DNA of 64,000 bases, from the NCBI GenBank assembly GCA_963833225.1, contig CAWHXD010000006.1, positions 256,001-320,000 on the forward strand. Direction: 5' to 3'. The notes beneath the pieces are model-generated. The model saw only the letters and a list, made by a program, of their open reading frames with translations, made no database searches and was not told the origin of the DNA. Each line of letters starts with the position of its first letter. Position 1 is the first letter of the stretch. Below are positions 2,893 through 16,603 of the stretch, piece by piece. Made by a program: the position numbers and the translations under genes. Source of the DNA: an uncultured Chloroflexia bacterium (GTDB lineage: Bacteria; Chloroflexota; Limnocylindria; Limnocylindrales; CSP1-4).

Positions 2893-3555
2893 TCAGAGCG
2901 CCCGGACGATCGTCTCCAGGCGGGCCGTGAACGCTCGCGCGTCCTCGTCCGGAAGCGCGCGGATCGGTGCGCCGATGCGGACCTCGACGGGATGGCGACG
3001 TGGCCGCCGCCCGCCCTTGGGCAGGACCTGGCGGATGCCGACGATCCGGATGGGCAGGACCTGGCGACCGGTGTGGCGCGCGAGGAGCCCGATTCCCGGC
3101 TGGAACGGGTTGATGTCACCCGTCATCGTGCGGGTGCCCTCGGGGAACATCACCACGTGCCAGCCCGCAGCGAGCAGGCCCTCTGCCGCCGCGATCGAGT
3201 CGGCGCCGCGGCCCGTCCGGTTGAAGGCGAACGCCCCGAGCCACGCGGCCACGAACCAGCGCGTCCGTTTGGTGGTGAAGTAGTCGGCTGCTGCTGCGGC
3301 GGTCATCCGGCGGCGGTGGCCGGGACCCAGCGCCAGCCGGATCGCGGAGAAGTCGAAATGGCTCGCGTGCGTCGGCGCGATGAGCGACGGACCCTCGAGC
3401 GCAGCCAGGTGCTCGTGGCCGACCACCCGAGGACCCACGAGGAACCAGCCGATGATCGGCCCGAAGAGCCGGGCCGTGACCTCCCGCAGCACGATCGCAG
3501 GTATCGAGAACTGCCGGCCGGTGGGCGGCGTGACCCGGCGGGCACGCTTGATCAT
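2893..3555 (-). CDS. Lysophospholipid (1-acyl-sn-glycerol-3-phosphate) acyltransferase family
   Basis: HASHFD (HxxxxD) and FPEGTRT motifs. ATG 3555 overlaps the upstream stop (ATGA). Confidence 0.85.
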   Translation of the reverse strand: MIKRARRVTPPTGRQFSIPAIVLREVTARLFGPIIGWFLVGPRVVGHEHLAALEGPSLIAPTHASHFDFSAIRLALGPGHRRRMTAAAAADYFTTKRTRWFVAAWLGAFAFNRTGRGADSIAAAEGLLAAGWHVVMFPEGTRTMTGDINPFQPGIGLLARHTGRQVLPIRIVGIRQVLPKGGRRPRRHPVEVRIGAPIRALPDEDARAFTARLETIVRAL

Positions 3556-4997
3556 CGCCGCTGGCTGGACCCGCCGCGCCGGAGCACCTCGCGGGCGGCC
3601 AGCCGGCCGCTCATGCCGTGCACCCCACCGCCAGGCGGCGTGGATGAAGAGCACAGGAACAGCGACGGGTTGGGAGTCGTGTACGGGTTCCAGCGCGGAA
3701 CCGGCCGGAACAGCAGCTGGCGCCAGTCGCCGATGCCGCCGTTGATGTCACCACCCACGTAGTTGGCGTCATAGGCCTCCATCCCGATCGCATCCTTCGT
3801 GGCGCGAGCCAGGACCAGATCGCCGAACCCTGGGGCGAACCGCTCGAGCTGGGCTTCGATCGCGGCCGTCATGTCGACCGTCGAGCCGTTCGGAACGTGG
3901 CAGTACGCCCAGGCGACATGCTTGCCCTGGGGCGCGCGCGACGGGTCCGCGATCGTGGGCTGGACGAGGAGGACGAACGGCCGATCGGTGATCCGCCCCC
4001 GTCCGACGGCGTCCTCGGATGCCGCGATCTCTCGGTACGTGCCTCCCAGGTGGACGGTGCCAGCGCGGGCAGTCCCGGGGTCTCGCCAGGGGATCGGCCC
4101 GTCGAGCGCCCAATCGATCTTGAACACGCCGGGGCCATAGCGGAAGCCCTCCAGCTGGCGCCGATATCCCGATGGCAGCCGGCCCGCGGCGATGTCAAGC
4201 ACCTGCCTCGGGGTCAGGTCAAGGAGCACGGCGCGCGACGGCGGCAGATCGCCCAGCGCCGTCACGCGGTGGCCGGTGACCACCTCCACGCCCAGCGACC
4301 GGGCCTCGGCCTCGAGCGCTGCCGCGATCGCCCCGCTCCCGCCGCGGGCCACGGGCCAGCCGACGGCATGCGCGAGCATGCCGAGCACGAGCCCGAACGA
4401 GGCGCTGAGCGGCTGGCCAAGCCGGAGCATCGAGTGTGCCGCCAACCCCGCGAACAGCGCACGAGCGGCGGGCTCACGGAAGGCAAGCCGCACGAGCGCC
4501 GTCGCGGGCAGCACGGCCGGCAGTCCAAACCGGGCCATGAGCAACGGGTGCCGCGGCGGCCGCACCACCGGGCCGAGGATCGCCGGGACCAGCCGTTCCC
4601 ACTCGCGCACCAGGGGGCCGAACAGCCGACGCCACGGATCCGCATCCCGGCCCAGGGCCCCCGCGAGGTCGGTGAGGTCACGCTCAAGCACGATGCTCCG
4701 GTCGGGAGCCAGGGCGTGGGCGACCGGAGCGTCCGGCTGCACCCATTCCAGGCCGTGCCGGGCAAGGTCAACCGACGCGAGGAACGGGGACGCGATTCCC
4801 AGCGGGTGAACGGAGGCGCACGGGTCATGGATGAACCCCGGGAGGGTCAGCTCGGCGGACCGGGAGCCACCGCCCACGCGGTCGGCAGCCTCGTAGATCC
4901 TGACCGTCCGACCGGCGCGAGCGAGTTCGATCGCGGCGGCCAGCCCGTTCGGTCCGGCACCGACGACGAGGGCGTCAAGGGCGCTGGCTCAATTCAT
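3552..4997 (-). CDS. Phytoene desaturase-like NAD(P)/FAD-dependent oxidoreductase (start region defective: ATG-AAT-TGA)
   Basis: Frame is open upstream of the ORF-track start: LDALVVGAGPNGLAAAIELARAG...YEAADRVGGG. C-terminal LCSSSTPPGGGVHGMSG. Confidence 0.8.
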
Positions 4998-5031: not shown

Positions 5032-5790
5032 TCAACTTCCCGTTGCACGGCCACCCGCTGCCCGCCGCCGGATCCAGCGCACCGGCGCCGTGATGGTGCC
5101 TAGCGCGGTGGACACGAGGATGCTGCCTCGGACGTTGCGCACGTAGCGCCACTGGCGCCGCTTGTCGACGCAGACCTTGATGGCGGTGACGCTGGGCTCG
5201 GCGACCCCAACCGATCGAGCGAGATTCTCCAGCGTCCGCTCCCAGAACTTGTCGTTCTGGCGGTTCGCGCCGAACACGTAGCTCAGCTCGACAAACGGGT
5301 CGCTGGCCCGTTCGAGCGCCTGGACTTGGGCAACCGTGGTGTCTCCATCCGTGTGCGAGGAGAACGTGATCCAGGCCGAGAACATGTGGCCCTCGGGCGT
5401 CATGAACGTGAACGACTCGGAATCCGCGTAGATGACCATCACGCCCGTCGACATGGTGAGCGGGGCGCCGGGCACCGCCTGGACCTCGAGCAGCGCAACC
5501 TCTCCGGGGCTGATGCCCGACAGGGGGGCGTAGAACGTGGCGCCCTTGGGCCAGAAGGTCGGGAAGTTGGCCTTCCAGTGGGCGACGAGCTCCTGGGGCG
5601 TCAGTTCGCAGCCCTCCAGGCGGACGGAGAAGGTCTTCTGCCACATCTGGCCGAAGCCCTGGACGGGCCCGGTGACGCGCTTGCCGGTGACCCGGTCGGT
5701 ACCGGCACCGCGGGCGGTGGTGCTGAGCTTGTCGACGGGACGGGCCCACGACTCCTGGTCGCGGGGCGCGCGGGGATCGGGGGTGGTCAT
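5032..5790 (-). CDS. Conserved hypothetical protein, possibly DUF1990/START-like fold; last gene of the partner-switching operon
   Basis: Clean coding composition and SD AAGGAG. Segment SFTFMTPEGHMFSAWITFS resembles the DUF1990 T-x-x-G-H motif (weak, by eye). Confidence 0.65.
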   Translation of the reverse strand: MTTPDPRAPRDQESWARPVDKLSTTARGAGTDRVTGKRVTGPVQGFGQMWQKTFSVRLEGCELTPQELVAHWKANFPTFWPKGATFYAPLSGISPGEVALLEVQAVPGAPLTMSTGVMVIYADSESFTFMTPEGHMFSAWITFSSHTDGDTTVAQVQALERASDPFVELSYVFGANRQNDKFWERTLENLARSVGVAEPSVTAIKVCVDKRRQWRYVRNVRGSILVSTALGTITAPVRWIRRRAAGGRATGS

Positions 5791-5847
5791 GGGGGTATCT
5801 CCTTGCTCGGGGCGAAGCGGCGCGCGGGTCTCGCCCGCCGCGACGGG

Positions 5848-6186
5848 TCAGCGGGCGGCAGCCAGCGCGGCGGTCTCGTCGTCGTGGATCGCGATCGCCT
5901 CGTCGAGGCGGGTCAGCTCGAGGATCTGCTTGTAGTGGTCAGACAGTCCGACGGCGAGCAGCTTCTGACCGGCGCGCTGGGCCCGGACGAGGAGCGTCAC
6001 CAGGAGGCCGATCCCGCCCGAGTTCATGTACTCGAGCTGGCCGAAGTCGAGGACGATCGAACGGGCGTCGCCGGCCTCTGCGTAGGCCGCCATGATCGGC
6101 GGCTCGCTGCCGCCCGTGATCTCGCCGTGGATTCGGAGGATCGCGGTCGACCCATCGCGGGTCACGTCGACGGTTGTGTCGGTCAT
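5848..6186 (-). CDS. STAS-domain anti-anti-sigma factor (RsbV/SpoIIAA-like) 2
   Basis: IVLDFGQLEYMNSGGIGLLV...ILELTRLD; phosphorylatable Ser present. Confidence 0.9.
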   Translation of the reverse strand: MTDTTVDVTRDGSTAILRIHGEITGGSEPPIMAAYAEAGDARSIVLDFGQLEYMNSGGIGLLVTLLVRAQRAGQKLLAVGLSDHYKQILELTRLDEAIAIHDDETAALAAAR

Positions 6187-6545
6187 CGTGCTGCCTCCTC
6201 TGGGACGCTGGATGCCGACGCGCCGTCGGCGATCGTGAGGTAGTCGGACAGGCGCGTGATCCGGAAGATCTCGCGGTAGTGGTCGGACAGACCGAGCGCG
6301 ATCACGTCACGGTGGTCGCGGCGGGCCTCCGCCAGGAGCCGGACGATGAGCGCGATGCCCGTCGAGTTGATGTAGTCCACGTCGCCGAAGTCGAGGATGA
6401 CGCGTGTCGCGCCGGTGCCGGCGGCCTGGGCGTATGCCGCGGCGAGGGCCTCGTCCGCGGCGATGTCCACGTCTCCCCGCATCTCCAGACGGGCCTCGCC
6501 GGGGGTCGTGGCAACAACCTCGACCGTCAACCGCTCCTTGCTCAT
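6183..6545 (-). CDS. STAS-domain anti-anti-sigma factor 1
   Basis: GDVDI...VILDFGDVDYINSTGIALIV...IFRITRL. SD AAAGGAGG before ATG 6545; ATGA overlap with the next gene. Confidence 0.9.
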   Translation of the reverse strand: MSKERLTVEVVATTPGEARLEMRGDVDIAADEALAAAYAQAAGTGATRVILDFGDVDYINSTGIALIVRLLAEARRDHRDVIALGLSDHYREIFRITRLSDYLTIADGASASSVPEEAAR

Positions 6546-6561
6546 GACGACCTCCTTTGGG

Positions 6562-8220
6562 TCAGCGCCCATCACGGGCGACGGTGAGCGTCACGGTCTG
6601 CATGCCGTCCGCGGCGTGCACGTCCATGCCGTCCACCATGTGGCGGATCAGGAACAAGCCCCAGCCGCGCGGCTTCTGACGGCCCTCAAGCTTCGCGTCG
6701 AGGTCGGGCATCTCGGCGTCGGGGACTGGTCCGGACAGCGCCCGGTCGGTCACGCGGACGCGGATCGTCTCGTGGTCCGCGTCCACGCGGACGTCAACGG
6801 GCACCTCTGGATTGCCCTGGGACCCGTACTCGATGGCATTCATCACGGTCTCGGCGACCGCGGTCTTGAGGCGCTCGAGGCGCGCCGGCCCGAGGTGGAG
6901 CGGCTCGACGGCCGCGGCCACCCGCTGCATGGCGGCGCGCTCGTTGCCGATGGCGCCTTCGATGGTGAAGGCGAGCAGCGGCTTGGCGTGGTCGACCCCC
7001 TCCGACGCGGCAGCGACCGGCTCCTGGTCACGGGTCACCGGGACCTCGGGACGGTTCTCAGCCCAGGCGTCAGAGGTGCCGATCGAGCGGCGCAGGGTCA
7101 CCAGCGTGATGTCGTCCTCCTGCTCCATGCCGGGTCCCGTGAAGGCGTGGAGCTCCTCGAGCAGGCGGTCGAGCAGCGCGCTTCCGGCGTCGTCAGTCGC
7201 CATTGCCTCGCGCAGGCGCGGGAAGCCGTACATCTCGCGGCCCGGTCCGTGCTGTTCCACGAGGCCGTCCGAGTAGAGCAGCATCGCCTCGCCCTGGCCG
7301 ACGAAGCCCTCCGTCTCCTCGTACGCGATGCCCGGCATGAGGCCGAGCGGGAGGCCGGTCGCCCGCAGCTCGATCACCCCGTCTGTCGTGCGCACGTACG
7401 GGAGGTTGTGACCGGCATTCGCGAACACGAAGCGGCCGGTCGCCGGTTCCAGGACGCCGTACAGGCAGGTCACGAACATGCGGGCGGGCATCTCCGGGGC
7501 AAGCAGTTCGTTCGCGCGGGCGAGGACCTTGCCGGGCTCGACGAGCCGTGGCGCCTCGGCCCGGAGGATCGAGTGTGTGCGGGCCATGACGAGGGCCGCC
7601 GGGACGCCCTTGTCGGTGACGTCGCCGACGACGACACCGATGCGGCCCTCGCCAAGGTCGATGAAGTCGTAGAAGTCGCCACCGACCACGCGTGCTGGTC
7701 CGTAGTAGGCGGCGATCTGCCACTCGGGCAGGTTTGGCAGCTCGTGCGGGAGGAACTGCTGCTGGATCAGCTGCGCGACCTTGAGCTCCTGCTCGAAGCG
7801 TTCGCGCTCGGCGGCCTCGGCGGCCTGCTCGCGAACCAGCTGGGCGACGCGGATGGCGGGCGCGGCCTGCGCGGCGAGCGTTGCCAGGAGCCGGCGGTCG
7901 TCCGAGGAGTAATCCTGCTCGGACAGGCGGGGACCGAGATTGAGCGTGCCGATCAGCTCGCCCTGGGTGACGAGCGGCACCACGAGCGCCACGCCGGCCT
8001 CGCGCAGCTCCGTCAGGGCCGTCGATGCCAGCTCGAGACGGGACAGGTCGACCGGCCCGGGCGCCGACTGGAGGTACGCGAACAGCGGATCCGTCTCCGG
8101 GATCTCGATCGCCACACCTGGCTGCTCGGCGGGCGCGGCGGGCATCGTGAGGGCGATGTCGGTCGCGTCCGGGGCGGGCCGGCGGCGGAAGCGGCGGAAG
8201 GGGCGGGTCAGAGCGGTCAT
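6562..8220 (-). CDS. SpoIIE/RsbU-type PP2C phosphatase with N-terminal partial GAF domain and C-terminal RsbW-like HATPase (Ser kinase) domain
   Basis: VGGDFYDF, GDVTDKGVPAALVMA, NAGHNLP, LYSDGLVE and EDDITLV (PP2C). AETVMNAIEYG...GWGLFLIRHMVD (HATPase_c_2). N-terminal LVVPLVTQGELIGTLNLG...DRRLLATLA (GAF C-half). Confidence 0.9.
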   Translation of the reverse strand: MTALTRPFRRFRRRPAPDATDIALTMPAAPAEQPGVAIEIPETDPLFAYLQSAPGPVDLSRLELASTALTELREAGVALVVPLVTQGELIGTLNLGPRLSEQDYSSDDRRLLATLAAQAAPAIRVAQLVREQAAEAAERERFEQELKVAQLIQQQFLPHELPNLPEWQIAAYYGPARVVGGDFYDFIDLGEGRIGVVVGDVTDKGVPAALVMARTHSILRAEAPRLVEPGKVLARANELLAPEMPARMFVTCLYGVLEPATGRFVFANAGHNLPYVRTTDGVIELRATGLPLGLMPGIAYEETEGFVGQGEAMLLYSDGLVEQHGPGREMYGFPRLREAMATDDAGSALLDRLLEELHAFTGPGMEQEDDITLVTLRRSIGTSDAWAENRPEVPVTRDQEPVAAASEGVDHAKPLLAFTIEGAIGNERAAMQRVAAAVEPLHLGPARLERLKTAVAETVMNAIEYGSQGNPEVPVDVRVDADHETIRVRVTDRALSGPVPDAEMPDLDAKLEGRQKPRGWGLFLIRHMVDGMDVHAADGMQTVTLTVARDGR

Positions 8221-8289
8221 CGGCGCCATCCTCGTGGTTGAGCGTTCGCGCATCGTTACGAAGTTGGTCCTGGTTGGCTGATCGTTGCG
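8221..8289 (-). promoter_or_regulatory. Putative SARP-type activated leaderless promoter of the phosphatase/STAS operon
   Basis: Minus strand reads CGCAACG-N22-CGTAACG-N6-GAACG-N9-GAGGAT-N7-ATGACCG. Same layout at 13698-13767. Confidence 0.6.
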
Positions 8290-9446
8290 TTACGCAGCCA
8301 GACCGACACTCCGGCAGGGCGGACGGCCTCGTCGGCCGAGGCGGCCAGCGTGCCGCGCAGGGTCACGAGGTCCAGCTCGTCGCGGAGGCGCTCGGCGAAA
8401 TCGTCGATCGTCTGCTGCGCGTCGACGCGGCTCCGGTCGAAGCGCCGGTCGACGGCCGCCTGGACGCGCCGCCGGAGGGGCTGGAACAGGGCGAACGCGG
8501 CGAGCGTTGAGGCCGCCACCGCCAGGGTTCCCCCCTGTGTGACACCCGACAGCAGCGCCTGCAGCGCGACCACCAGGCCACCGAACACGACGGCCAGGAG
8601 CGCGGTGACCGCGACGTACGAGACGGACCGGCTGACGATCCGGTCGATGTCGTACAGGTGGTAGCGACGGATCGCGACCCCGATGGCAGCTGGGATCATG
8701 GGGTACGCGATCACGGCCGGGAGCCACATCCAGGTGCCGTTGGCATCAACAAGGAAGATCATGGTGAACGCGAAGACCACGGCCGACAGGGTCGCCGCGA
8801 GCGCGGCGAGCAGCCACTTGTACTGGGCCCGCGCGGTGCCCCGGGCCCGGCGGAATCGGACGACGAGGGCTCCGATCGCGACCGCGAGGGCCGCGAGAAC
8901 GCCGATGTAGACGAGGTTGTCCAGCATCGGCCAGCCGGGCCAGTCGGGCATGACCGCGAGCGGCAGGAGAACCCGCGCCGTCGACCCGTCGGTGAAGGTG
9001 ACCTGCCAACTCGGCGCGAACGCCAGAACGGCGCTGAAGCCGAGCGGGATGGCCACCGCGATCCGCCCCGCCACGCCGACCCGCCCCGCCGAGAACCGCC
9101 CGGTCGGGAACAGCGTCGCGAGCGCGACGAACAGGCCGAAAAAGAGGCTCGCGCTCCACGCGCTCAACCAGGCGTAGAAGGTGACTCCCGCGTCAGCGTG
9201 GCCGTCGACAACCTGGGACGCGGAGCCCGGGAGCGTGTTCCCGAGCGCGGAGAAGGCGAAGGCGATGCCCAGCAGGAGCCAGCCGACCACCTCTCGTGGC
9301 CGCCGCCAGAGCAGGACCAGGCCCACGGCGGCGAACGAGCCGACGATCAGCCAGCCAGACCAGTCCTGATGGGCCCAGGCCGAGGGCGCGAGGACGAGCA
9401 CTGCGAGGATGCAATACGGGATGACCCGCCATCGTTCGAGCTTCAT
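8256..9446 (-). CDS. Multi-pass membrane sensor-like protein, cassette 4 (ends in GAF N-half; no output domain)
   Basis: Many hydrophobic helices. Shared C-terminal block RYHLYDIDRIVSR...LAVAASTL..FALFQPLRRRVQAAVDRRFDR...ERLRDELDL...VRPAGVSVWLR. Confidence 0.85.
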   Translation of the reverse strand: MKLERWRVIPYCILAVLVLAPSAWAHQDWSGWLIVGSFAAVGLVLLWRRPREVVGWLLLGIAFAFSALGNTLPGSASQVVDGHADAGVTFYAWLSAWSASLFFGLFVALATLFPTGRFSAGRVGVAGRIAVAIPLGFSAVLAFAPSWQVTFTDGSTARVLLPLAVMPDWPGWPMLDNLVYIGVLAALAVAIGALVVRFRRARGTARAQYKWLLAALAATLSAVVFAFTMIFLVDANGTWMWLPAVIAYPMIPAAIGVAIRRYHLYDIDRIVSRSVSYVAVTALLAVVFGGLVVALQALLSGVTQGGTLAVAASTLAAFALFQPLRRRVQAAVDRRFDRSRVDAQQTIDDFAERLRDELDLVTLRGTLAASADEAVRPAGVSVWLRNATISQPGPTS

Positions 9447-10696
9447 GCCGTGCCTCCCCGGGTTGGCCGGATCCAGACGCCGGCTCCGCTCGGTCCGAGC
9501 GCCCGTGCGACCGTGTCAACGGCGCCGGCTTGGATCTCGTCGAGGTCGGTGACACCCCGGAGGTGCTCCGCGTACGCCTCGACGGTCCGCGCGGCGTCGT
9601 AGCGACGGCGGTTGAACCGCTGGTCGACGGCCGCCTGGATGCGTCGTCGAACGGGCTGGAAGACGGCCGCGGCCCCCAGGGTTGAGGCCGCGACGGCCAG
9701 GCTGCTCTCGCTGGCCAGCGGGGCGAGCAACGCCTGGAGGGCGACGATGAGTCCGGCGAACAGCGCCGCGATCAGACCGGTGGTGAGGGCCCACGAGATG
9801 GTCCGGCTGATGATCCGGTCGATCTCGTACAGGCGATAGCGGAGCACGGCGATCCCGATCGCGATCGGGACGCACGGGATGGCGACGATCGGGCCGATCC
9901 AGGCCAGGCCCGACTCGCTCGCGCCCGGGACGAGCGCGCTGACGACGAACCCCGCCAGCACGCCGGCGATGACGAGGCCGAGCGCCGCCGAGATCCAGCG
10001 GAGCTGCTGGCGCTCGAGGCCGGTGGTCCGGCGATAGCGGACGAAGAGCGAAGCGACCGAGCCGGCGAGGAGGACGACGAACGGGAGGACCGCCGTATCC
10101 GGCGTGACCAGTTGCCACACTGGCAGCTGGGGGAGGACCGCCAACGGGTTGCGCACACCCACGCTGGTCGACGCCCCGTTCAAGCTGACGGGAATCTTCG
10201 GCATGAACATGGCCGTCACTGCAACGGCGAGGCAGAGCCCGAGGGCAAGCCGGGCGACGATCCCCCACCGGCCGGTGGGCGGGCGCCCGGACGGAAAGAC
10301 CATCGACAGCACCGCCAGCAGGAAGAACAGCATGAGCCCGGACTGCGCCTGCACGACGGCAATGCCGGCGGCGGTCGGGCTCACGCTGCCGTCGTCGAAC
10401 TGCGCCGCGGTCGCAGGGACCGTCGACAGGATCAGCACGAAGCCCCAGCTCAGCGCGACCAGGATCCAGCCGATCGAGGTGCCCGGGCGCCGGACGGCGA
10501 GGAGCGTCCCCACGCCCGCGTAGGGCACGAACCAGATCAGGCCGATCCCACTCGGCGCGGCGGCGATCGCCCCGAGACCGAACAGGGCAACCAGCAGGAC
10601 ACGCGCGGGCGGCCCCAGCGGCGCTACGGCTTCGATGGCGCCTGCCGCGCTCGCCGGTCCCGGGACGACACGCCAGCGGCGCGCGGCCCCGGTCAC
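9443..10696 (-). CDS. Multi-pass membrane sensor-like protein, cassette 3
   Basis: Same conserved C-terminus (RYRLYEIDRIISR...EHLRGVTDL...LGPSGAGVWIR). GTG 10696 is in frame and overlaps a TGA. Confidence 0.8.
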   Translation of the reverse strand: MTGAARRWRVVPGPASAAGAIEAVAPLGPPARVLLVALFGLGAIAAAPSGIGLIWFVPYAGVGTLLAVRRPGTSIGWILVALSWGFVLILSTVPATAAQFDDGSVSPTAAGIAVVQAQSGLMLFFLLAVLSMVFPSGRPPTGRWGIVARLALGLCLAVAVTAMFMPKIPVSLNGASTSVGVRNPLAVLPQLPVWQLVTPDTAVLPFVVLLAGSVASLFVRYRRTTGLERQQLRWISAALGLVIAGVLAGFVVSALVPGASESGLAWIGPIVAIPCVPIAIGIAVLRYRLYEIDRIISRTISWALTTGLIAALFAGLIVALQALLAPLASESSLAVAASTLGAAAVFQPVRRRIQAAVDQRFNRRRYDAARTVEAYAEHLRGVTDLDEIQAGAVDTVARALGPSGAGVWIRPTRGGTA

Positions 10697-10776
10697 GACC
10701 GGTCCCCTCGAACCAATGCGAGGCTGAAGCCGATTGAGCGTGAGCTGGGCGGTATCGGCGGACGTGACGCCATCAT
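10693..10776 (-). CDS. 27-aa bridging ORF (MMASRPPIPPSSRSIGFSLALVRGDRS) between cassettes 2 and 3
   Basis: Its ATG overlaps the stop of 10773-11999 and its TGA overlaps GTG 10696. No recognisable domain. Confidence 0.35.
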   Translation of the reverse strand: MMASRPPIPPSSRSIGFSLALVRGDRS

Positions 10777-11999
10777 CGCGTGGTTCCTTGCTGGCGGGTC
10801 CAGACGGCCACCGACCGGGGCTGCATCGAGCGCCCGACCACCGTCTCGAGGTGTGCGTTGAGGGTGTCGAGGGCCGTATCGTCGCGCAGCCCGGCGGCGA
10901 ACCCGTCGAGGACGCGCTGGGCATCGATGTGCGCCCGATTGAACCTGCGGTCGACCGCTGTCTGGACGCGCCGACGCAATGGCTGGAACAGGGTGAAGGC
11001 GACCAGCGTCGCCGCGGCGACCGAGACCGTGCTCTGGCCGGTCAGCGGGCTCAACAGCTCCTGCAGCCCGACGACGGTCACGGCGAACATGACCGCGAGC
11101 ATGGCGCTGATGATCAGATAGCTGATGCTGCGGCTGACAATCCGGTCGATATCCCACAGCCGGTAGCGGAGGACCGCGACACCGGCCGAGATCGGGATGC
11201 CCAGGATGGCTGCGGTGACCACGATCTCGGTGAGCTTGGCGGCGCCCGGTGGCATGGCGCCGAGCTTGGCCAACGGGATGACCCAGAACACGAGACCACA
11301 GACCGCGACGCTGAACGCGAGCCACTTGAGCTGCTGACGGCTCTCCCCGGTGGCGCGGCGGAACCGGAGCGCGAGGGCGCTCGCGCCGATGAAGATGGCG
11401 ACGATGAGCGGCAGGTAGGCGATCCATCGCAGCTCGGGCCGGATCGCGATCTCGATGGCGAACGGATTGGACAGGTAGGAGGCGTTGTCGAGGGGCCCCG
11501 GCAGCACGGCGGCACCCAGTGCCGCGAGCGCCACCACACCGACATCGAGCCGAACGATCGGGCGCCAACGCGAGCTCAGCAGGCGTCCATCCGGGAACAC
11601 GAGCGGCAGGAACACGGTCACGAGCGCGATGGCCGGGATCCAGATCCAGCCGGCAAGCCAGGCTGCGACGTCTCCTCCCGCATGGGCGCCCGGCTCGGCG
11701 ATGAGGGCCAGTGCCGCGTACTGATCACACGCGCCCTCGACAGCCGACAGGATCGCGGCGGCCAGGAACAGCCACCCGATCGGATTCCCACGGACGCGGA
11801 CCACCACGATGGCTCCGATCGCCACGCAGGTGCCCGCGATCACGATCGGAAATCCGCGGACCGACCAGGTGCCCGGGACCTCCACCGACCAGGTCGCCGC
11901 GAGCAGGCCGATGCCAATGGTGCACAGCATGCCCGTGAACACGATGCTGGCTGCAGCGGCCAGCCTGGGCAGGAAGGAGCGCACCGCAATCGGGTTCAC
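10773..11999 (-). CDS. Multi-pass membrane sensor-like protein, cassette 2
   Basis: GNPIGWLFL, LVFPDGRLLSSRWR, ESRQQLKWLA, RYRLWDIDRIVSR...GLRDDTAL...MQPRSVAVWTR. GTGA overlap at 11996-11999. Confidence 0.85.
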   Translation of the reverse strand: MNPIAVRSFLPRLAAAASIVFTGMLCTIGIGLLAATWSVEVPGTWSVRGFPIVIAGTCVAIGAIVVVRVRGNPIGWLFLAAAILSAVEGACDQYAALALIAEPGAHAGGDVAAWLAGWIWIPAIALVTVFLPLVFPDGRLLSSRWRPIVRLDVGVVALAALGAAVLPGPLDNASYLSNPFAIEIAIRPELRWIAYLPLIVAIFIGASALALRFRRATGESRQQLKWLAFSVAVCGLVFWVIPLAKLGAMPPGAAKLTEIVVTAAILGIPISAGVAVLRYRLWDIDRIVSRSISYLIISAMLAVMFAVTVVGLQELLSPLTGQSTVSVAAATLVAFTLFQPLRRRVQTAVDRRFNRAHIDAQRVLDGFAAGLRDDTALDTLNAHLETVVGRSMQPRSVAVWTRQQGTTR

Positions 12000-12301
12000 G
12001 GCGTTCCCCGTCGGGCTCGAAGCCACAGCGCGACACCCGAGGGCTCGATCACCTGTCCGACCGTCGCAGCGGTGTTCTGTGATTCGGCGACCAGATCGAC
12101 GACGGTCTCGAAGAACAGCACAAACGCAACGAGCAGCCAGCCGACGATCTCTCGGGGTCGCGGACAGGTGAGGAACAGGCCGACTCCAGCGAACGACCCG
12201 GTGACCAAGACGTCACTGACTTCGACGCTTGACAACAGCGCGGGCGCGACGATGAGCACCGCGATCGCCGGGTAGGGCACCGCCCGCACCGCGACCCTCA
12301 T
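11996..12301 (-). CDS. Internally shortened paralogous cassette (101 aa; N-terminal TM helices joined in frame to the terminal VIEPSGVALWLR strand)
   Basis: VPYPAIAVL...GSFAGVGLFL..PRPREIVGWLL matches the N-terminus of 8256-9446; the end matches the family C-terminus. Coupled on both sides. Confidence 0.6.
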   Translation of the reverse strand: MRVAVRAVPYPAIAVLIVAPALLSSVEVSDVLVTGSFAGVGLFLTCPRPREIVGWLLVAFVLFFETVVDLVAESQNTAATVGQVIEPSGVALWLRARRGTP

Positions 12302-13533
12302 CCCTCCGCCGCCGGGCGCACCCAGACCGCAACCGATCCCGGGTGGAGAGCCTCGTGCACCGTGGTTGCGATGTCAGCCTCCACCGAGGCGAGATCCACC
12401 CGGTCGCGCAGCCGCTCGCCGAACGCGGTCACCACACGCTCCCCGTCGTACCGGGCCCGGTCGAACCGCCTGTCCACCGCTCGCTGGACCCGCCGGCGCA
12501 GCGGGGCGAAGAGCGCGAACGCCACCAGCGTGGAGGCCGCCACCGCGAGCGTCTGCCCCTGCGTGAACCCGGCGAGGACCCCCTGGAGCCCGACGACGAG
12601 CCCGGCGAACACCGCGACGAGCAGGCCCGTCACCAGTGCCCAGCCGATCGTGCGGCTGATGATCCGGTCGATCTCGTACAGCCGGTACCGGAGGATCGCG
12701 GCGCCGATCGCCATCGGAAACAGGGTCCACGAGATCCCGACGGCCAGGTCACCGACCTCCGAGTAGCCGTTCGGTCCGGCCTCCGCACCGTAGGTGACCA
12801 TGGCTGCCGTGACAAGCGAGGCGGCTGCGGCGACCCACTTGAGCTGCGCCCGCTCGAGTGCTCCGGAACGCCGCCAGCGTCCGACGAGCGACAGCGCGGC
12901 GAGCCCGATGCACAGCACGGTCAGCCCATAGACGCCCTCCCAGATCGCCCAGAGCGGAGTCGGTGGCGGCGCCAGCGGATTCTCCAGCCACGTGTAGTAC
13001 GGGAAGGCGCCGGGCCGCAGGGCCGCCCCGCAGAACACCAGCGTGGCGAAGAGCGCAGTCGATCCAACCAGCCACCGCCACCGTGGTGAGGGCAGGTGCC
13101 CGTCGGGGAACACCAGGAACAGCAGTGCGATGGCGAGGAAGAGCGGACCGTCCATGAGGCTGATCAAGAGCGCCGCCAGGGCGATGCCGGGCATGGGTTC
13201 GGGGTGGCGGATGTACGCGTCGAGGACGACGTACCCTGCGAGCGGGAACCCGATGGCGAGCACGAGCGGCCCGACGACGTTGCCGGGCCGGCGGACCGCG
13301 ATCAGCCACCCGACGACGAGGAACGTGATCGTCGCGACGAGGAAGACGAGACCGAGGACTGTTGGCGTCGTGTCGTCCAGCAGCCGGGCCAACGTCGCAA
13401 TCGAGGCCACGAGGACGGTCAGGCCGACGATCAAGGCCTGCAGCTGGCGGGCGACGTGGCGCTTGGGCGGAGCCTGACCCGCCTGTGACCTGAAGTCCGC
13501 TCCCGAACCCCGTGCCACGGCACGCTCGCTCAT
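12298..13533 (-). CDS. Multi-pass membrane sensor-like protein, cassette 1
   Basis: RRPGNVVG, LVFPDGHLPSPRWR, ERAQLKWVA, RYRLYEIDRIISR...GERLRDRVDL...LHPGSVAVWVR. ATG 13533 with GGGGAG upstream. Confidence 0.85.
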   Translation of the reverse strand: MSERAVARGSGADFRSQAGQAPPKRHVARQLQALIVGLTVLVASIATLARLLDDTTPTVLGLVFLVATITFLVVGWLIAVRRPGNVVGPLVLAIGFPLAGYVVLDAYIRHPEPMPGIALAALLISLMDGPLFLAIALLFLVFPDGHLPSPRWRWLVGSTALFATLVFCGAALRPGAFPYYTWLENPLAPPPTPLWAIWEGVYGLTVLCIGLAALSLVGRWRRSGALERAQLKWVAAAASLVTAAMVTYGAEAGPNGYSEVGDLAVGISWTLFPMAIGAAILRYRLYEIDRIISRTIGWALVTGLLVAVFAGLVVGLQGVLAGFTQGQTLAVAASTLVAFALFAPLRRRVQRAVDRRFDRARYDGERVVTAFGERLRDRVDLASVEADIATTVHEALHPGSVAVWVRPAAEG

Positions 13534-13697
13534 GTCGTCTCCCCGGACCCGCGACACAGCCACACGCCGATCCTGGTCGGCAGCACCGCCGCTTCGACCG
13601 TCGCCCGAGCATCGCGGCCGATGGTCGGCAGATCCACCTCGCCACGGAGGCGTTCGCCCGGGAAGAGCAGCGCCAGTGCGATGCGGGACGCGGTCAT
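13530..13697 (-). CDS. 55-aa microprotein consisting almost solely of the cassette C-terminal (GAF N-half) module
   Basis: Hand translation MTASRIALALLFPGERLRGEVDLPTIGRDARATVEAAVLPTRIGVWLCRGSGETT*. Matches GERLRDRVDLASVEADIATTVHEALHPGSVAVWVR. ATGA overlap with 13533. Confidence 0.7.
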   Translation of the reverse strand: MTASRIALALLFPGERLRGEVDLPTIGRDARATVEAAVLPTRIGVWLCRGSGETT

Positions 13698-13767
13698 GGC
13701 ACCCGATGGTGAGGGCGGGTCGTTCCCAAAACGTTACGGGATTCGGCGCCGAAGTTGTACCGTTGCG
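13698..13767 (-). promoter_or_regulatory. Putative SARP-type operator/promoter for the cassette array, overlapping the -10 of the divergent regulator
   Basis: Minus strand reads CGCAACG-N22-CGTAACG-N6-GAACG-N9-CACCAT-N8-ATGACCG. TACCGT at 13758-13763 on the + strand lies 8 nt before regulator ATG 13772. Confidence 0.6.
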
Positions 13768-13771
13768 CGAC

Positions 13772-16603
13772 ATGTCACTTGACATCCGCGTTCTCGGCCC
13801 CCTCGAGGTCCACGTGGACGGCGAGCCGATCCGCGTGGACACGCGGAAGGCCCAGGCGATCGTCGCCGTGCTCGCGGTTGAACGGCGTCCCTATGCGCGC
13901 GATGAGCTGGCGGCACTGTTCTGGCCCGAGTCGGGCGACGAGTCGGCACGGAACGCGCTGCGACGGACCCTGTCCGTGCTTCGCGCGGCGCTCGGCGGAC
14001 GGTGGCTGCGCGTCGATCGTGCGACGGTGGCGCTCGCCGATCACGGTGACGGCGTGTGGCTGGACCTGGCCGTGCTCGAGGGAGCGGCGGAAGCGGGCGG
14101 GCATTCCGCGCTCACCGACGCGGCGGCGCTTGCCCGGGGGCCCTTTCTCGCCGGCTTCTCACTCCGCGACAGCCCGGATTTCGATGACTGGCACGCGACC
14201 CGGGCGGTTACCGTTGAACGGCGGATCGTGGACGTCCTCGAGCGGCTTGTCTCAGCAGCGGAGTCCGCCGGCGACACCGCGGCCGCCATCACGGCGGCTA
14301 CCCGGCTCGTGGAGCTGAACCCGCTCGACGAGCCGGCGCGCCGACGCCTCATGACCGCTCTTGCCCGCAGCGGTGACCGGGCCGCGGCGATCCGCCAATA
14401 CCGTGCGACCGTCGCGATGCTCGAGCGCGAGCTCGGCGTGAGCCCGCTCGCCGAGACCACGGCGGCCTACGAGGCGATCCGTGACGAACGGCTCGGTCCC
14501 GTCGTGACCGCTGCGGCGGCAGTTGCTGCCACGGGCCCAGAGCCGCCACCGGCTGCGGCCGCGTCACCGCCCCGGCTGCCATTGACGGGTCGCCGCCTGG
14601 AGTTTAAATCACTCCGCGCTGCGCGCCGCTCATCGTCGCCGGACGGGCGAGTCGCCGTCCTCACCGGCGAGGCCGGGATCGGCAAGTCCCGCCTCGCGGA
14701 GGCGCTTCTCGCGGAGGCGGTCGCCGACGAAGGTGTGGTGCTCACCGCACGCGCCTTCCCGGCCGAGGGATCGATCGCCTACGCCCCAATCGTGGAGCTG
14801 CTCCGTTCGGGCTTCGCCCACCAGGATGCGGCTCGCCGCCTGGCCGATGTCCCACCGGGGATCCTCGCAGAGGTGGGGCGGCTCGTGCCCATGCCCGATC
14901 ACGTGACCGCGGGCACCGCGACGGCGGGATCTCCCAATTCACCCGCGGCGCGCGCCCGGCTGCTCGATGCCGTTGCCACGGTCCTCGCCGCGATCGTCCA
15001 CGCCCCCGCTCCGGGCATCGTCGCCGTCGAGGACCTGCAATGGGCGGACAGTGCGTCGAGGGAGGCGATCCTGTACCTGGCCCGGCGGCTGGCCGGGCGA
15101 CCGATGCTCCTCCTCGTCACGTGGCGACCCGAGGACCTGGAGGCCGCCGCCACGACGTTTGCGGATTCCCTCGAGAGCCTTCCGGGCGTGACGTCGATTC
15201 GGCTGGAGCGGCTGGATGACGTTGTCGTCGGTGCGCTCGTCGAGTCAGCGGTCGCCGCGGGCCTGCCACGCTGGGACGCGGCGGCGCTGGCCGCGGAGTC
15301 GGAGGGGCTTCCGCTGTACGTCGTCGAAGCGCTCATGGCGGGTCCCGGAGCGGTTGGGCACAATCCCCCGCGAGGCGTTCGTGCGCTCCTGCACGAGCGT
15401 CTGTCGACCGCTTCCGGGACCGCGAGCCAGGTTCTCGCCGCGGCGGCGGTGATCGGACGCTCGTTCGACTTCGGGACCGTCCGGGCAGCCAGCGGTCGCG
15501 CCGAGGACGAGACCGTCACCGCGCTCGAGGAGCTTGTCCAGCGGGGGATCGTCCGCGAGCTCGCCGGAACCGGCGAGCCGGCGTTCGACTTCGCCCACGC
15601 GCGGCTGCGTGACGCCGCGTACGAGGCCATCGGGACGGCACGGCGCCGGCTGCTCCACCGGCGAGTGGCCGATGCGCTGGGCGCCGATGCGGCCGGTCGC
15701 GACAACCCGGGCCGCCTCGCCAAGATCGCAGGTCATGAGCGGGCCGCAGGTCGCGACGCGGCCGCCGCGGAGGCATACCGGGAGGCAGGACGCGGATCGC
15801 GGCGGGTCTACGCGAACCGGGAGGCGCTGGCGCATCTCGAGATGGCCCTCGCCCTCGGGCACCCGGACGTCGCGGGACTGCAGGTGGCGATCGGCGAGAC
15901 GCGGACCGCGCTCGGCAACTACGCGGGAGCGATTGCGGCATTCGAAGCGGCCGCGGGTCTCGTGTCGGACGCGGCCCTGCCGGAGATCGAGCTGCGACTG
16001 GGCCAGGTCCACGCGCGACGCGGCGATGTGGCAACCGCCGCGAGCCACCTGGATGCGGCGCTGGAGGGCGCCGACGACCGGCTTCGGCCAGCCGTGCTGG
16101 TGGAGCAGGGCGCAGTCGCATTCAGGGCGGACGAGCTGGACGCGGCCGTCTCGTTCGCGAGCACTGCCCTGGGTGCCATCACCGGCACGGAGGACGCGAG
16201 GACGACGGGTGCCGCCAGTCGTCTCCTGGGCCTCGTGGCCCTCCGGCGCGGAGACCTCGACGCGGCGCGGGAGGCCCTTCGGTCGGCCGTCGCTGCGGCG
16301 GACCAGAGCGCGGAACCCAGCGCATCGATCGCAGCCCGCAACGGGCTCGCGCTCGTGGAGGCTGCCGCGGGCCACCGGGACGCGGCGATCACCTTGCTCG
16401 AGGAGGCCCTGGCCGAGTGCCGGCGGACGGGCGAGACGCACCTCGAGGCGGCGGTCGAGAACAACCTCGCCGACCAGCTGCACGCCGTCGGCCGCACGGA
16501 GGAGGCGATGGATCACCTCAAACGTGCCGTGGCCCTGTTCGCCGAGGTCGGCGGGCGGCCGGGCGAGCTTGAGCCCGAGATCTGGAAGCTTGTCTCCTGG
16601 TAG
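13772..16603 (+). CDS. SARP/AfsR-like transcriptional regulator: wHTH + BTAD + AAA/STAND NTPase + TPR repeats
   Basis: IRVLGPLEV...RDELAALFWPE...ARNALRRTL; BTAD GPFLAGF...PLDEPARRRLM; Walker A GEAGIGKS; Walker B VEDLQWAD; FDFAHARLRDAAY; helical repeats. Confidence 0.9.
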   Translation: MSLDIRVLGPLEVHVDGEPIRVDTRKAQAIVAVLAVERRPYARDELAALFWPESGDESARNALRRTLSVLRAALGGRWLRVDRATVALADHGDGVWLDLAVLEGAAEAGGHSALTDAAALARGPFLAGFSLRDSPDFDDWHATRAVTVERRIVDVLERLVSAAESAGDTAAAITAATRLVELNPLDEPARRRLMTALARSGDRAAAIRQYRATVAMLERELGVSPLAETTAAYEAIRDERLGPVVTAAAAVAATGPEPPPAAAASPPRLPLTGRRLEFKSLRAARRSSSPDGRVAVLTGEAGIGKSRLAEALLAEAVADEGVVLTARAFPAEGSIAYAPIVELLRSGFAHQDAARRLADVPPGILAEVGRLVPMPDHVTAGTATAGSPNSPAARARLLDAVATVLAAIVHAPAPGIVAVEDLQWADSASREAILYLARRLAGRPMLLLVTWRPEDLEAAATTFADSLESLPGVTSIRLERLDDVVVGALVESAVAAGLPRWDAAALAAESEGLPLYVVEALMAGPGAVGHNPPRGVRALLHERLSTASGTASQVLAAAAVIGRSFDFGTVRAASGRAEDETVTALEELVQRGIVRELAGTGEPAFDFAHARLRDAAYEAIGTARRRLLHRRVADALGADAAGRDNPGRLAKIAGHERAAGRDAAAAEAYREAGRGSRRVYANREALAHLEMALALGHPDVAGLQVAIGETRTALGNYAGAIAAFEAAAGLVSDAALPEIELRLGQVHARRGDVATAASHLDAALEGADDRLRPAVLVEQGAVAFRADELDAAVSFASTALGAITGTEDARTTGAASRLLGLVALRRGDLDAAREALRSAVAAADQSAEPSASIAARNGLALVEAAAGHRDAAITLLEEALAECRRTGETHLEAAVENNLADQLHAVGRTEEAMDHLKRAVALFAEVGGRPGELEPEIWKLVSW

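Follow-up and report, generated by a model that had tools for sequence, protein, structure and literature searches.

We describe a signalling operon, conserved among Chloroflexota (Limnocylindria-like) and Actinomycetota, whose genes divide a single GAF domain between them: the first part is encoded at the ends of tandemly repeated genes for membrane receptors, and the rest at the beginning of a single gene for a phosphatase/kinase-like enzyme. The operon was recognized in a stretch of 64,000 nucleotides (nt) from an uncultured Chloroflexia bacterium (GenBank assembly GCA_963833225.1, contig CAWHXD010000006.1, positions 256,001 to 320,000), hereafter the window; positions are counted from its first letter and the genes concerned are all encoded on the minus strand. 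The split between the genes is genuine, and it is both ancient and conserved. The reading that we lean towards, as the best explanation of it, is that receptor and enzyme reassemble the domain in trans. A preliminary description of this DNA, made from the sequence alone, had proposed both the division and the reassembly, and we evaluate the two claims here by comparison with natural fusions of both halves, with related loci and genomes, and with structural models.

A GAF domain divided between two genes

The enzyme matches three Pfam GAF profiles above their cut-offs (GAF_3, PF13492, 36.7 bits against 27; GAF_2, PF13185, 33.9 against 28.6; GAF, PF01590, 31.8 against 22.4). The matches start at profile positions 42–49 when the full open reading frame (ORF) is searched, or at 40–43 with a construct that begins at the twelfth residue (M12), and all run to the profile end. 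The complementary part is recognized through proteins in which the two genes are joined. Among 80 enzyme loci fetched from Chloroflexota (Limnocylindria or Limnocylindrales labels) and Actinomycetota metagenome-assembled genomes, one, L059, is a natural fusion of the two genes in one frame; its loop is short (...VSVWLRDQTKVGAEALADIAPNDP...), and it lacks the MTxLTRP motif of the split enzymes. Its GAF region is covered nearly from end to end (positions 1–127 of 129 in GAF_3 and 1–132 of 133 in GAF), and both matches begin at the helix 'DLDELSSSLAG...VSVWLR', which is homologous to the last helix of the receptor tail; in other fused proteins the GAF profile starts at positions 1, 2, 3 and 7. 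This complementary profile cover, together with the full-length cover of L059, upholds the proposed division of the domain between receptor tail and enzyme N-terminus. A search among longer proteins returned chains in which the receptor membrane part and tail run straight into GAF, PP2C and sometimes HATPase_c_2 domains, and histidine kinases bearing the same N-terminal module.

The frequency of such fusions was assessed with the L059 stretch, which had 14750 matches among 1.84 billion cluster representatives. Among the best 150 of these, 48 are contiguous fusions and 16 more contain both parts around an insert of 25–57 amino acids (aa), which bears out the expectation that natural fusions would exist; the C-terminal half by itself is found near the protein N-terminus in 72 and further in in 13, with one other arrangement. 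Two long ORFs, P0125 and P0132, were set aside as fusion evidence on account of visibly frameshifted stretches. In L059-stretch coordinates, the receptor tails align over positions 1 to 63 or 67 and the split enzymes from 65–75 onwards, which places the break in the loop after the first strand (positions 58–62), and this loop is the lowest-confidence stretch of the domain core in the fused model.

Structural models are in agreement. The fused L059 stretch, modelled with AlphaFold2 from an alignment of 51 rows (built on the 48 contiguous representatives, P0138 and P0139), has a mean predicted local distance difference test (pLDDT) of 89.9 and a predicted TM-score of 0.80. It consists of a long helix, a helix at 38–53 and a strand at 58–62 (the VSVWL segment), followed by the elements of the enzyme half. 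The PDB yields 146 matches to it at E ≤ 0.001, the best of them at 7e-7; on single GAF domains the TM-score by target reaches 0.65. The enzyme N-terminus alone, modelled from 63 rows, has pLDDT below 50 over residues 1–34 and comprises two short helices, one beta hairpin and a long helix, with only two long strands; a Foldseek search of the PDB returned mostly GAF-containing chains, none of them at E ≤ 0.001, with TM-scores by target of 0.12–0.44. Set against the 146 matches of the fused stretch, this accords with the earlier claim that the enzyme N-terminus is not a complete GAF domain by itself. Since natural fusions, break point and models agree, we regard tail and enzyme as complementary parts of one GAF domain, the tail being, as aligned and modelled, its first helix and strand and the enzyme its remainder.

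The receptors and their tails

Four full-length multi-pass paralogues followed by a PP2C/RsbW-like enzyme and STAS genes are all present on the minus strand, as first described, and a fifth copy can be added to them. The others are 37–39% identical to the first of the four, with similarity highest over the last 150 residues or so and far lower N-terminally. A crude hydropathy scan finds 9–10 hydrophobic peaks in the receptors, and the last 66–98 residues contain 12–13 lysines and arginines; because the C-terminus is rich in these residues, the positive-inside rule would place the tail in the cytoplasm. All four terminate 3–11 residues past a V/A-W-x-R motif. Neither Pfam (E ≤ 0.1) nor NCBIfam provided a family for any of them, and the earlier view of proteins with divergent N-terminal parts, like C-termini and no recognized catalytic or signalling domain is sustained. 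The HisKA_7TM profile (PF16927) was likewise unmatched by all four in the Pfam search at E ≤ 0.1, although PF16927 is among the precomputed hits of P0073, a longer homologue; in the literature this profile turned up in two censuses of archaeal kinases. A score of 0.84 was obtained for the nearest named Atlas cluster, which is a lead only.

The family is large. Of 8000 candidates that were scored, at least 2657 are relatives at E ≤ 0.001, a count that takes in longer gene calls, fused or tandem, and sources that name members annotate them as 'hypothetical protein'. The best 120 are mostly 375–420 aa in length, and the longer ones that were inspected are tandem copies called as a single gene. 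Among 289 C-termini, 265 end 0–10 residues past the end of the receptor model. When 123 of 245 distinct tails (every second one) were aligned with the four from the window, the tryptophan was invariant (127/127), with the arginine and a proline nearly so. Paralogues share about 27% identity in the sensor part, 36–46% in the tail and 56–63% in the helix that precedes it.

The fifth copy is a 101-aa ORF, residues 6–67 of which match residues 7–68 of receptor 1 (45% identity), while residues 68–95 match residues 358–385, that is, the tail. It could be the remnant of a receptor or a small tail-only protein. The genome from which the window derives contains one such enzyme, five full receptors, four of them at the locus, and one distant relative.

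The enzyme and its STAS partners

Beyond the partial GAF domain, the enzyme has a SpoIIE/PP2C domain (PF07228, 165.7 bits, profile positions 2–191 of 192) and a HATPase_c_2 domain (PF13581, 73.2 bits against a cut-off of 27.4, positions 9–126 of 127). Its structural relatives include Rv1364c, SpoIIE and RssB for the PP2C domain and SpoIIAB for the C-terminal domain (E ~6e-4); the best match to a solved structure is Rv1364c of Mycobacterium tuberculosis (PDB 3KE6, E 1.1e-14, residues 172–392). The translation shows GGDFYDF, GDVTDKG, YSDGL and EQEDDIT, which we take to be the metal-binding motifs of a PP2C phosphatase.

The canonical ATP-binding boxes of HATPase_c_2 are, we assume, the N box, a G1 box of the form DxGxG and the G2 box. 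An N-box-like ETVMNAIEYG and a G2-like PRGWGLFLI are conserved, and the G1 stretch (residues 502–511, 6721–6750, minus strand) reads VTDRALSGPV in 30 of 73 aligned sequences, the window's included, and IVDNGGGRDI or IADAGLGGAV in more distant relatives. As the G1 stretch of the clade reads TDRALSG, kinase activity is uncertain on sequence grounds and ATP binding may be altered in the window's clade. The two STAS proteins match PF01740 with 43 and 49.5 bits and TIGR00377 with 55.3 and 57.6 bits (cut-off 53.45), and contain INSTGI and MNSGGI, presumably the phospho-site with its phosphorylatable serine. Relatives are present in 77 of the 80 loci, mostly directly after the enzyme gene or overlapping its end.

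Conservation and distribution

At 71 of the 80 loci the enzyme is preceded on its own strand by at least one receptor C-terminus, which in 67 of these cases is within 600 nt; the arrays comprise between one and about ten receptor copies per locus, partial copies included. Of 61 genomes surveyed from the class, 10 (8 of 26 genera) yielded the enzyme, and each of the 10 has 3–23 receptor matches. The arrangement of several receptors beside a single enzyme, proposed from one locus, is therefore conserved. Enzyme-negative genomes never have more than two receptor matches and 14 have one or two; in nine of these 14 the match ends at model position 359–401, before or inside the tail (model 382–409), and inspection of seven loci from the remaining five genomes showed that four loci in three genomes carry it. 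The largest expansion seen is that of genome G055 (82% complete), with 23 receptor matches over at least ten contigs and a single enzyme match.

The enzyme has its own conserved beginning. At 62 of the 80 loci (those with a single clean match from query residue 20 or earlier and a methionine near the expected start) it opens with MTxLTRPxRRLxGR, continues through an Ala/Pro-rich linker of about 25–35 residues and enters the domain at V-x-(I/V)-D-I-x-E-x-D-P-L. In the window the conserved start is likely M12 (the ATG at 8220), as the codons directly ahead of it owe their reading, H-E-D, to the GAGGA that they contain. Receptor 1 and the enzyme are in different frames, as had been stated, the stop codon of the former (8256–8258) and the first ATG in the frame of the latter (8253) being 2 nt apart. 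The same description held that a sequencing indel was unlikely to explain the split. It is indeed no sequencing artefact, since 62 loci, assembled independently, show it together with the same start motif.

Reassembly in trans and its alternatives

Three lines of argument favour reassembly of the domain in trans: the pieces are exactly complementary and frequently fused, following 'Rosetta stone' logic; a terminal amphipathic helix and hydrophobic strand are strictly kept in old paralogues; and multi-copy arrays are restricted to enzyme-bearing genomes. Direct prediction of the complex adds a little. With enzyme residues 1–165 and the last 72 residues of receptor 1, ESMFold2 gave a score of 0.59 (runs 0.57, 0.59 and 0.64), whereas the best of three controls scored 0.00. 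At least 67% of contacts are common to the runs, and the pLDDT of the partner is 56 or more. In calibration, 58 of 80 solved complexes passed the mark, as did 2 of 110 mismatched pairs; 7 of the 80 and both of these mismatches did so with 0.60 or less. Docking of tail and enzyme, as proposed at the outset, thus gains weak support from the score and none from an interface, and the pass may itself reflect likeness to known folds, since GAF domains are among the solved structures.

Several observations weigh against this reading. The complex prediction falls in the weak band and returned no interface; the half domain of the enzyme was modelled confidently without the tail (pLDDT 86–94 over residues ~41–150); and the isolated tail has no Pfam GAF match even at E ≤ 10, so that its assignment rests on the fused proteins. 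Of the similarity to GAF domains originally claimed for the tail, homology to the GAF start of those fusions stands and recognition by the profile does not. Tail-bearing receptors also occur apart from the enzyme. One, of full length, is an orphan in the window's own genome (on another contig, C17, 347428–348591; locus L084, 7282–8661), far from the only split enzyme there; others occur in genomes G019, G028 and G037 (91–92% complete), where a search at E ≤ 0.001 found no orthologous split enzyme, those of G028 and G037 at contig ends and one of G019 in mid-contig beside a permease gene. On one side of the orphan is a 2-oxoacid dehydrogenase gene with E3 and E1 fused, on the other an E2 gene. 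No receptor lies upstream at nine of the 80 loci, three of which have downstream receptors and six none in the fetched DNA, some of it short. Paralogous tails are more alike within than between loci when all loci are compared (similarity 0.46 against 0.36). We take this difference to be phylogenetic, as it is nearly gone once the comparison is confined to 31 loci that are closely related (0.37 against 0.34), and hence no clear sign that each tail is co-adapted to the enzyme of its locus. Finally, no output target, sigma factor or other, was identified; sigma-factor genes were not searched for.

Much of this speaks for an alternative in which receptors and enzyme belong to the same pathway and operon and no domain is reassembled. 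The tail would then serve oligomerization or gating, the truncated GAF domain would be a dimerization or linker module of the enzyme's own, and any contact would be made by the basic motif. The tail-bearing receptors of the three genomes in which no split enzyme was detected, the orphan copy of the window's own genome, the confidence with which the enzyme half is modelled alone, the weak complex score and the fact that no locus-specific covariation of the tails was seen all favour it, as does the conservation of MTxLTRPxRRLxGR in the enzyme and its absence from the short-linker fusion L059. It leaves unexplained, however, why the cut should sit precisely in a single loop of a single domain, with neither overlap nor gap, why fused forms with a short loop are common, and why each of 127 tails ends in an amphipathic helix and hydrophobic strand with an invariant tryptophan. 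We consider it unlikely, and at the same time a serious possibility.

It is improbable, in our estimation, that a fused protein is made after all, whether by recoding (frameshift or read-through) or by recombination of conserved 3' ends with the upstream copies as a reservoir of sensor cassettes. The partial and internally deleted copies of the arrays indicate recombination among paralogues, a few relatives are in one frame with the N-terminal motif of the enzyme kept (P0130 and the 16 two-stretch representatives), and at L006, L041, L048, L060, L061 and L080 receptor and enzyme share a frame and lie no more than 30 nt apart, counted from the stop codon. Yet the enzyme may be in frame 0, 1 or 2 relative to the receptor and the gap ranges from -16 to more than 1000 nt, which no single recoding event fits. 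In the window, the enzyme frame has a stop 11 codons before the ATG, and no slippery heptamer is apparent by eye in the roughly 30 nt between. Programmed frameshifting or read-through as a general route was rejected on this upstream stop and on the variation of frame and spacing among the 71 loci. Moreover, all receptor ORFs are complete and have starts of their own, the ribosome-binding site and start of the enzyme are conserved in 62 loci, and some long fusions come from visibly frameshifted assemblies, P0125 and P0132 among them. We disfavour still more strongly, as very improbable, the idea that the tails are decaying relics of an old fission followed by duplication, on receptors functionally unrelated to the enzyme. 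The lack of a recognized domain in the receptors and their variable copy number (between 1 and ~10 in a locus, with as many as 23 matches in a genome) are compatible with such decay; against it, the paralogues are old, as the identity of their sensor parts indicates, and nonetheless nearly all stop within 10 residues of the same point with the tail residues kept, synteny extends across two phyla, and multi-copy arrays occur only where the enzyme does.

A possible mechanism

If the domain is reassembled in trans, the architecture of the parts suggests how a signal might pass. Each receptor, of about 400 aa, joins a divergent membrane-embedded sensor to a conserved cytoplasmic helix and stops after helix 1 and strand 1 of the GAF domain; the soluble enzyme comprises the basic motif, a linker modelled as disordered, the other two thirds of the GAF domain and then, after a long linker helix, the PP2C and RsbW-like ATPase domains. 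In the fused relatives the path leads from membrane sensor to cytoplasmic helix, GAF domain, long linker helix and PP2C domain. In the split system, strand and helix of a receptor tail would insert into the incomplete GAF domain in the cytoplasm, and docking would bring the enzyme to the membrane; the state of the receptor would then act on the rebuilt GAF domain and, through it, on the conformation of the linker helix, and the linker helix would set the balance for the two STAS proteins, with dephosphorylation on one side and phosphorylation or binding on the other. A single enzyme would serve the genome's five or six proteins with a tail, which would share it or compete for it, so that their inputs converge on one partner-switching output. 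Any cassette might then dock, and docking might tune STAS phosphorylation, as the preliminary description suggested. More speculatively, the basic N-terminal motif of the enzyme might aid docking or contact with the membrane.

We tentatively propose, short of favouring it outright, that this amounts to a 'plug and socket' coupling. Up to about ten receptors per locus would compete to complete the GAF domain of one cytosolic phosphatase/kinase, the sensor domain would exist only as a complex, and inputs could be added, lost or swapped by duplication of cassettes. The 101-aa copy could be a plug without a receptor, acting as a decoy or as a constitutive input.

Organization of the locus

The features of the operon and its neighbours are given in Table 1. 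Transcription would proceed from receptor 4 through the 101-aa ORF and receptors 3, 2 and 1 to the enzyme, the two STAS genes, the 252-aa gene and the oxidoreductase, in a region of 69–72% G+C. Several neighbouring genes overlap by 4–14 nt or are separated by 2 nt, resembling a translationally coupled operon.

Table 1. Coordinates of the split-GAF operon and adjacent features in the window.
Feature	Position	Strand	Description
Receptor 4	12298..13533	-	411-aa multi-pass membrane protein; GAF alpha1-beta1 tail at its end (...SVAVWVRPAAEG)
Fifth receptor copy, internal deletion	11996..12301	-	101 aa; N-terminal ~65 residues joined in frame to the alpha1-beta1 tail (VDLVAES...GVALWLR)
Receptor 3	10773..12026	-	417 aa from GTG at 12026; in-frame alternative start at 11999
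Receptor 2	9443..10696	-	417 aa; 3' end overlaps start of receptor 1 by 4 nt
Receptor 1	8256..9446	-	396 aa; adjoins enzyme; stop codon TAA
Receptor 1 tail, residues 358-385 (LDLVTLRGTLAASADEAVRPAGVSVWLR)	8292..8375	-	GAF helix alpha1 and strand beta1; homologous to the stretch under Pfam GAF profile positions 1 to ~35 in fused relatives
Conserved non-coding motif CGTAACGATGCGCGAACG	8243..8260	-	Overlaps stop codon of receptor 1; 40 nt before likely enzyme start
Enzyme ORF	6562..8253	-	563 aa from first ATG; likely start ATG at 8220 (MTALTRPFRR...), GAGGA at 8229-8233
Enzyme, partial GAF, residues 44-134	7852..8124	-	C-terminal two thirds of GAF; Pfam profile positions ~42-133
Enzyme, PP2C/SpoIIE phosphatase domain, residues 202-389	7087..7650	-	Pfam profile match
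Enzyme, HATPase_c_2 (RsbW/SpoIIAB-like), residues 439-557	6583..6939	-	G1 stretch TDRALSG
STAS protein 1	6183..6575	-	130 aa; anti-sigma-factor-antagonist family
STAS protein 2	5848..6186	-	112 aa
252-aa protein without family	5032..5790	-	Relative downstream of enzyme on same strand in nearly all of the 76/80 related loci having one
CrtO-like oxidoreductase	3552..4877	-	Follows 252-aa gene
BTAD-AAA_16-TPR regulator	13775..16603	+	Divergent from receptor array; ORF open from 13532

The 252-aa protein has no Pfam or NCBIfam family, and the oxidoreductase matches the C-terminal part of the CrtO model with E 8e-21, far below the cut-off of that model. Relatives of the former are present in 76 of the 80 loci and of the latter in 64; both are possible outputs or co-regulated genes. 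A relative of the BTAD (AfsR/SARP-like) regulator is found in 64 of the 80 loci, on the opposite strand upstream of the array.

A conserved motif of 18 nt (CGTAACGAT-n-TCCG-n-ACG) lies at the junction of the last receptor and the enzyme. The core CGTAACG occurs in all 62 loci examined, from two phyla (at the same position, L001–L079), 39–51 nt before the enzyme start, and a weaker copy (CGTGACGAT or CGTAACG...) is found some 31–35 nt upstream in several loci (8283–8294 in the window). Since the motif may fall in any of the three reading frames of the receptor before it, it does not reflect a coding constraint. An RNA element was rejected, there being no Rfam match at E ≤ 1 across 8100–8400 of the window and no structure (energy 0.0) from RNAalifold across 63 aligned upstream regions. 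The enzyme had been credited with its own promoter-like motif; this did not hold for a sigma-70 promoter, since a consensus scan of 5700–13900 found no promoter-like site, and what is present instead is the conserved non-coding motif. Nor does it fit the promoter of a regulon, the 9-mer CGTAACGAT occurring once in the 3.89-Mb genome and so marking no set of genes. It may be a promoter or operator of the enzyme gene, and by its position alone the neighbouring BTAD regulator is a candidate for the protein that binds it.

Relation to known systems

The GAF, PPM/SpoIIE, RsbW-like and STAS families are known already and the fused architecture is present in databases; what sets the window's system apart is the cut inside the GAF domain, the tandem multiplication of the receptor half, and a single enzyme half with its own conserved start signals. 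The closest relatives are the fused multi-pass GAF-PP2C(-HATPase_c_2) proteins (P0138, P0139, P0140 and L059), which are homologous over their full length and share the membrane module (with its RYRLxDID motif), the cytoplasmic helix and the order of domains; one of them, P0139, is named 'SpoIIE family protein phosphatase [Chloroflexota bacterium]' in its source. They differ in being a single chain with a short loop after strand beta1, without MTxLTRPxRR and with one sensor per enzyme, whereas the window's system has its cut in that very loop and repeats the sensor part in tandem.

Among characterized regulators, Rv1364c of M. tuberculosis is a PAS-PP2C-anti-sigma kinase-STAS multidomain protein, according to the passages of PMC12143880 that concern it. 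Like the window's enzyme it combines PP2C and RsbW-like domains in one chain that acts on a STAS partner, but its PAS domain is whole and its STAS domain fused, while here the GAF domain lacks its first third, two STAS genes are separate and membrane receptors precede the enzyme. RsbZ of Clostridioides difficile is described in the same passages as a GAF-PP2C phosphatase of the general stress response that is regulated through a coiled-coil linker. Its GAF domain, joined to the PPM domain by a long helical linker, recalls the predicted helix at residues 106–156 of the M12 construct, but is complete and in cis, unlike that of the window.

In logic, the nearest analogue appears to be the stressosome of Bacillus subtilis, in which four RsbR paralogues feed RsbT/RsbU (PMC9765535, PMC11821858), and which also has paralogous sensors with variable N-termini, a conserved C-terminal docking part and one partner-switching output. 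RsbR is soluble and docks by a whole STAS domain in a large complex, whereas no RsbR, RsbS or RsbT is evident in the window's operon and docking would complete a domain. Precedents for small alpha/beta domains in two pieces are the split PH domains of eukaryotes, namely those of PLC-gamma (PMC2573054) and of the yeast channel Fps1 with Rgc2, where the pieces are reported to lie in a membrane protein and its regulator (PMC3861672). The likeness is one of principle only: the fold is another, the setting eukaryotic, and arrays of interchangeable partners are not known from them. A full-text search of the literature, supplements lying outside it, found 'split GAF' nowhere and nothing relevant on fission of GAF domains, split domains, or strand or trans complementation.

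Significance

Were the halves to stay apart, the matching, conserved truncation of both partners at the same loop would need another explanation. If reassembly in trans is true, it would amount to a bacterial example, widespread and present in two phyla, of a domain for sensing small molecules or signals that is shared by two polypeptides, and would explain how many membrane inputs can act on one partner-switching output without a stressosome. It would also offer a natural template for split-domain biosensors, and would give a function to a large family of unannotated membrane proteins.

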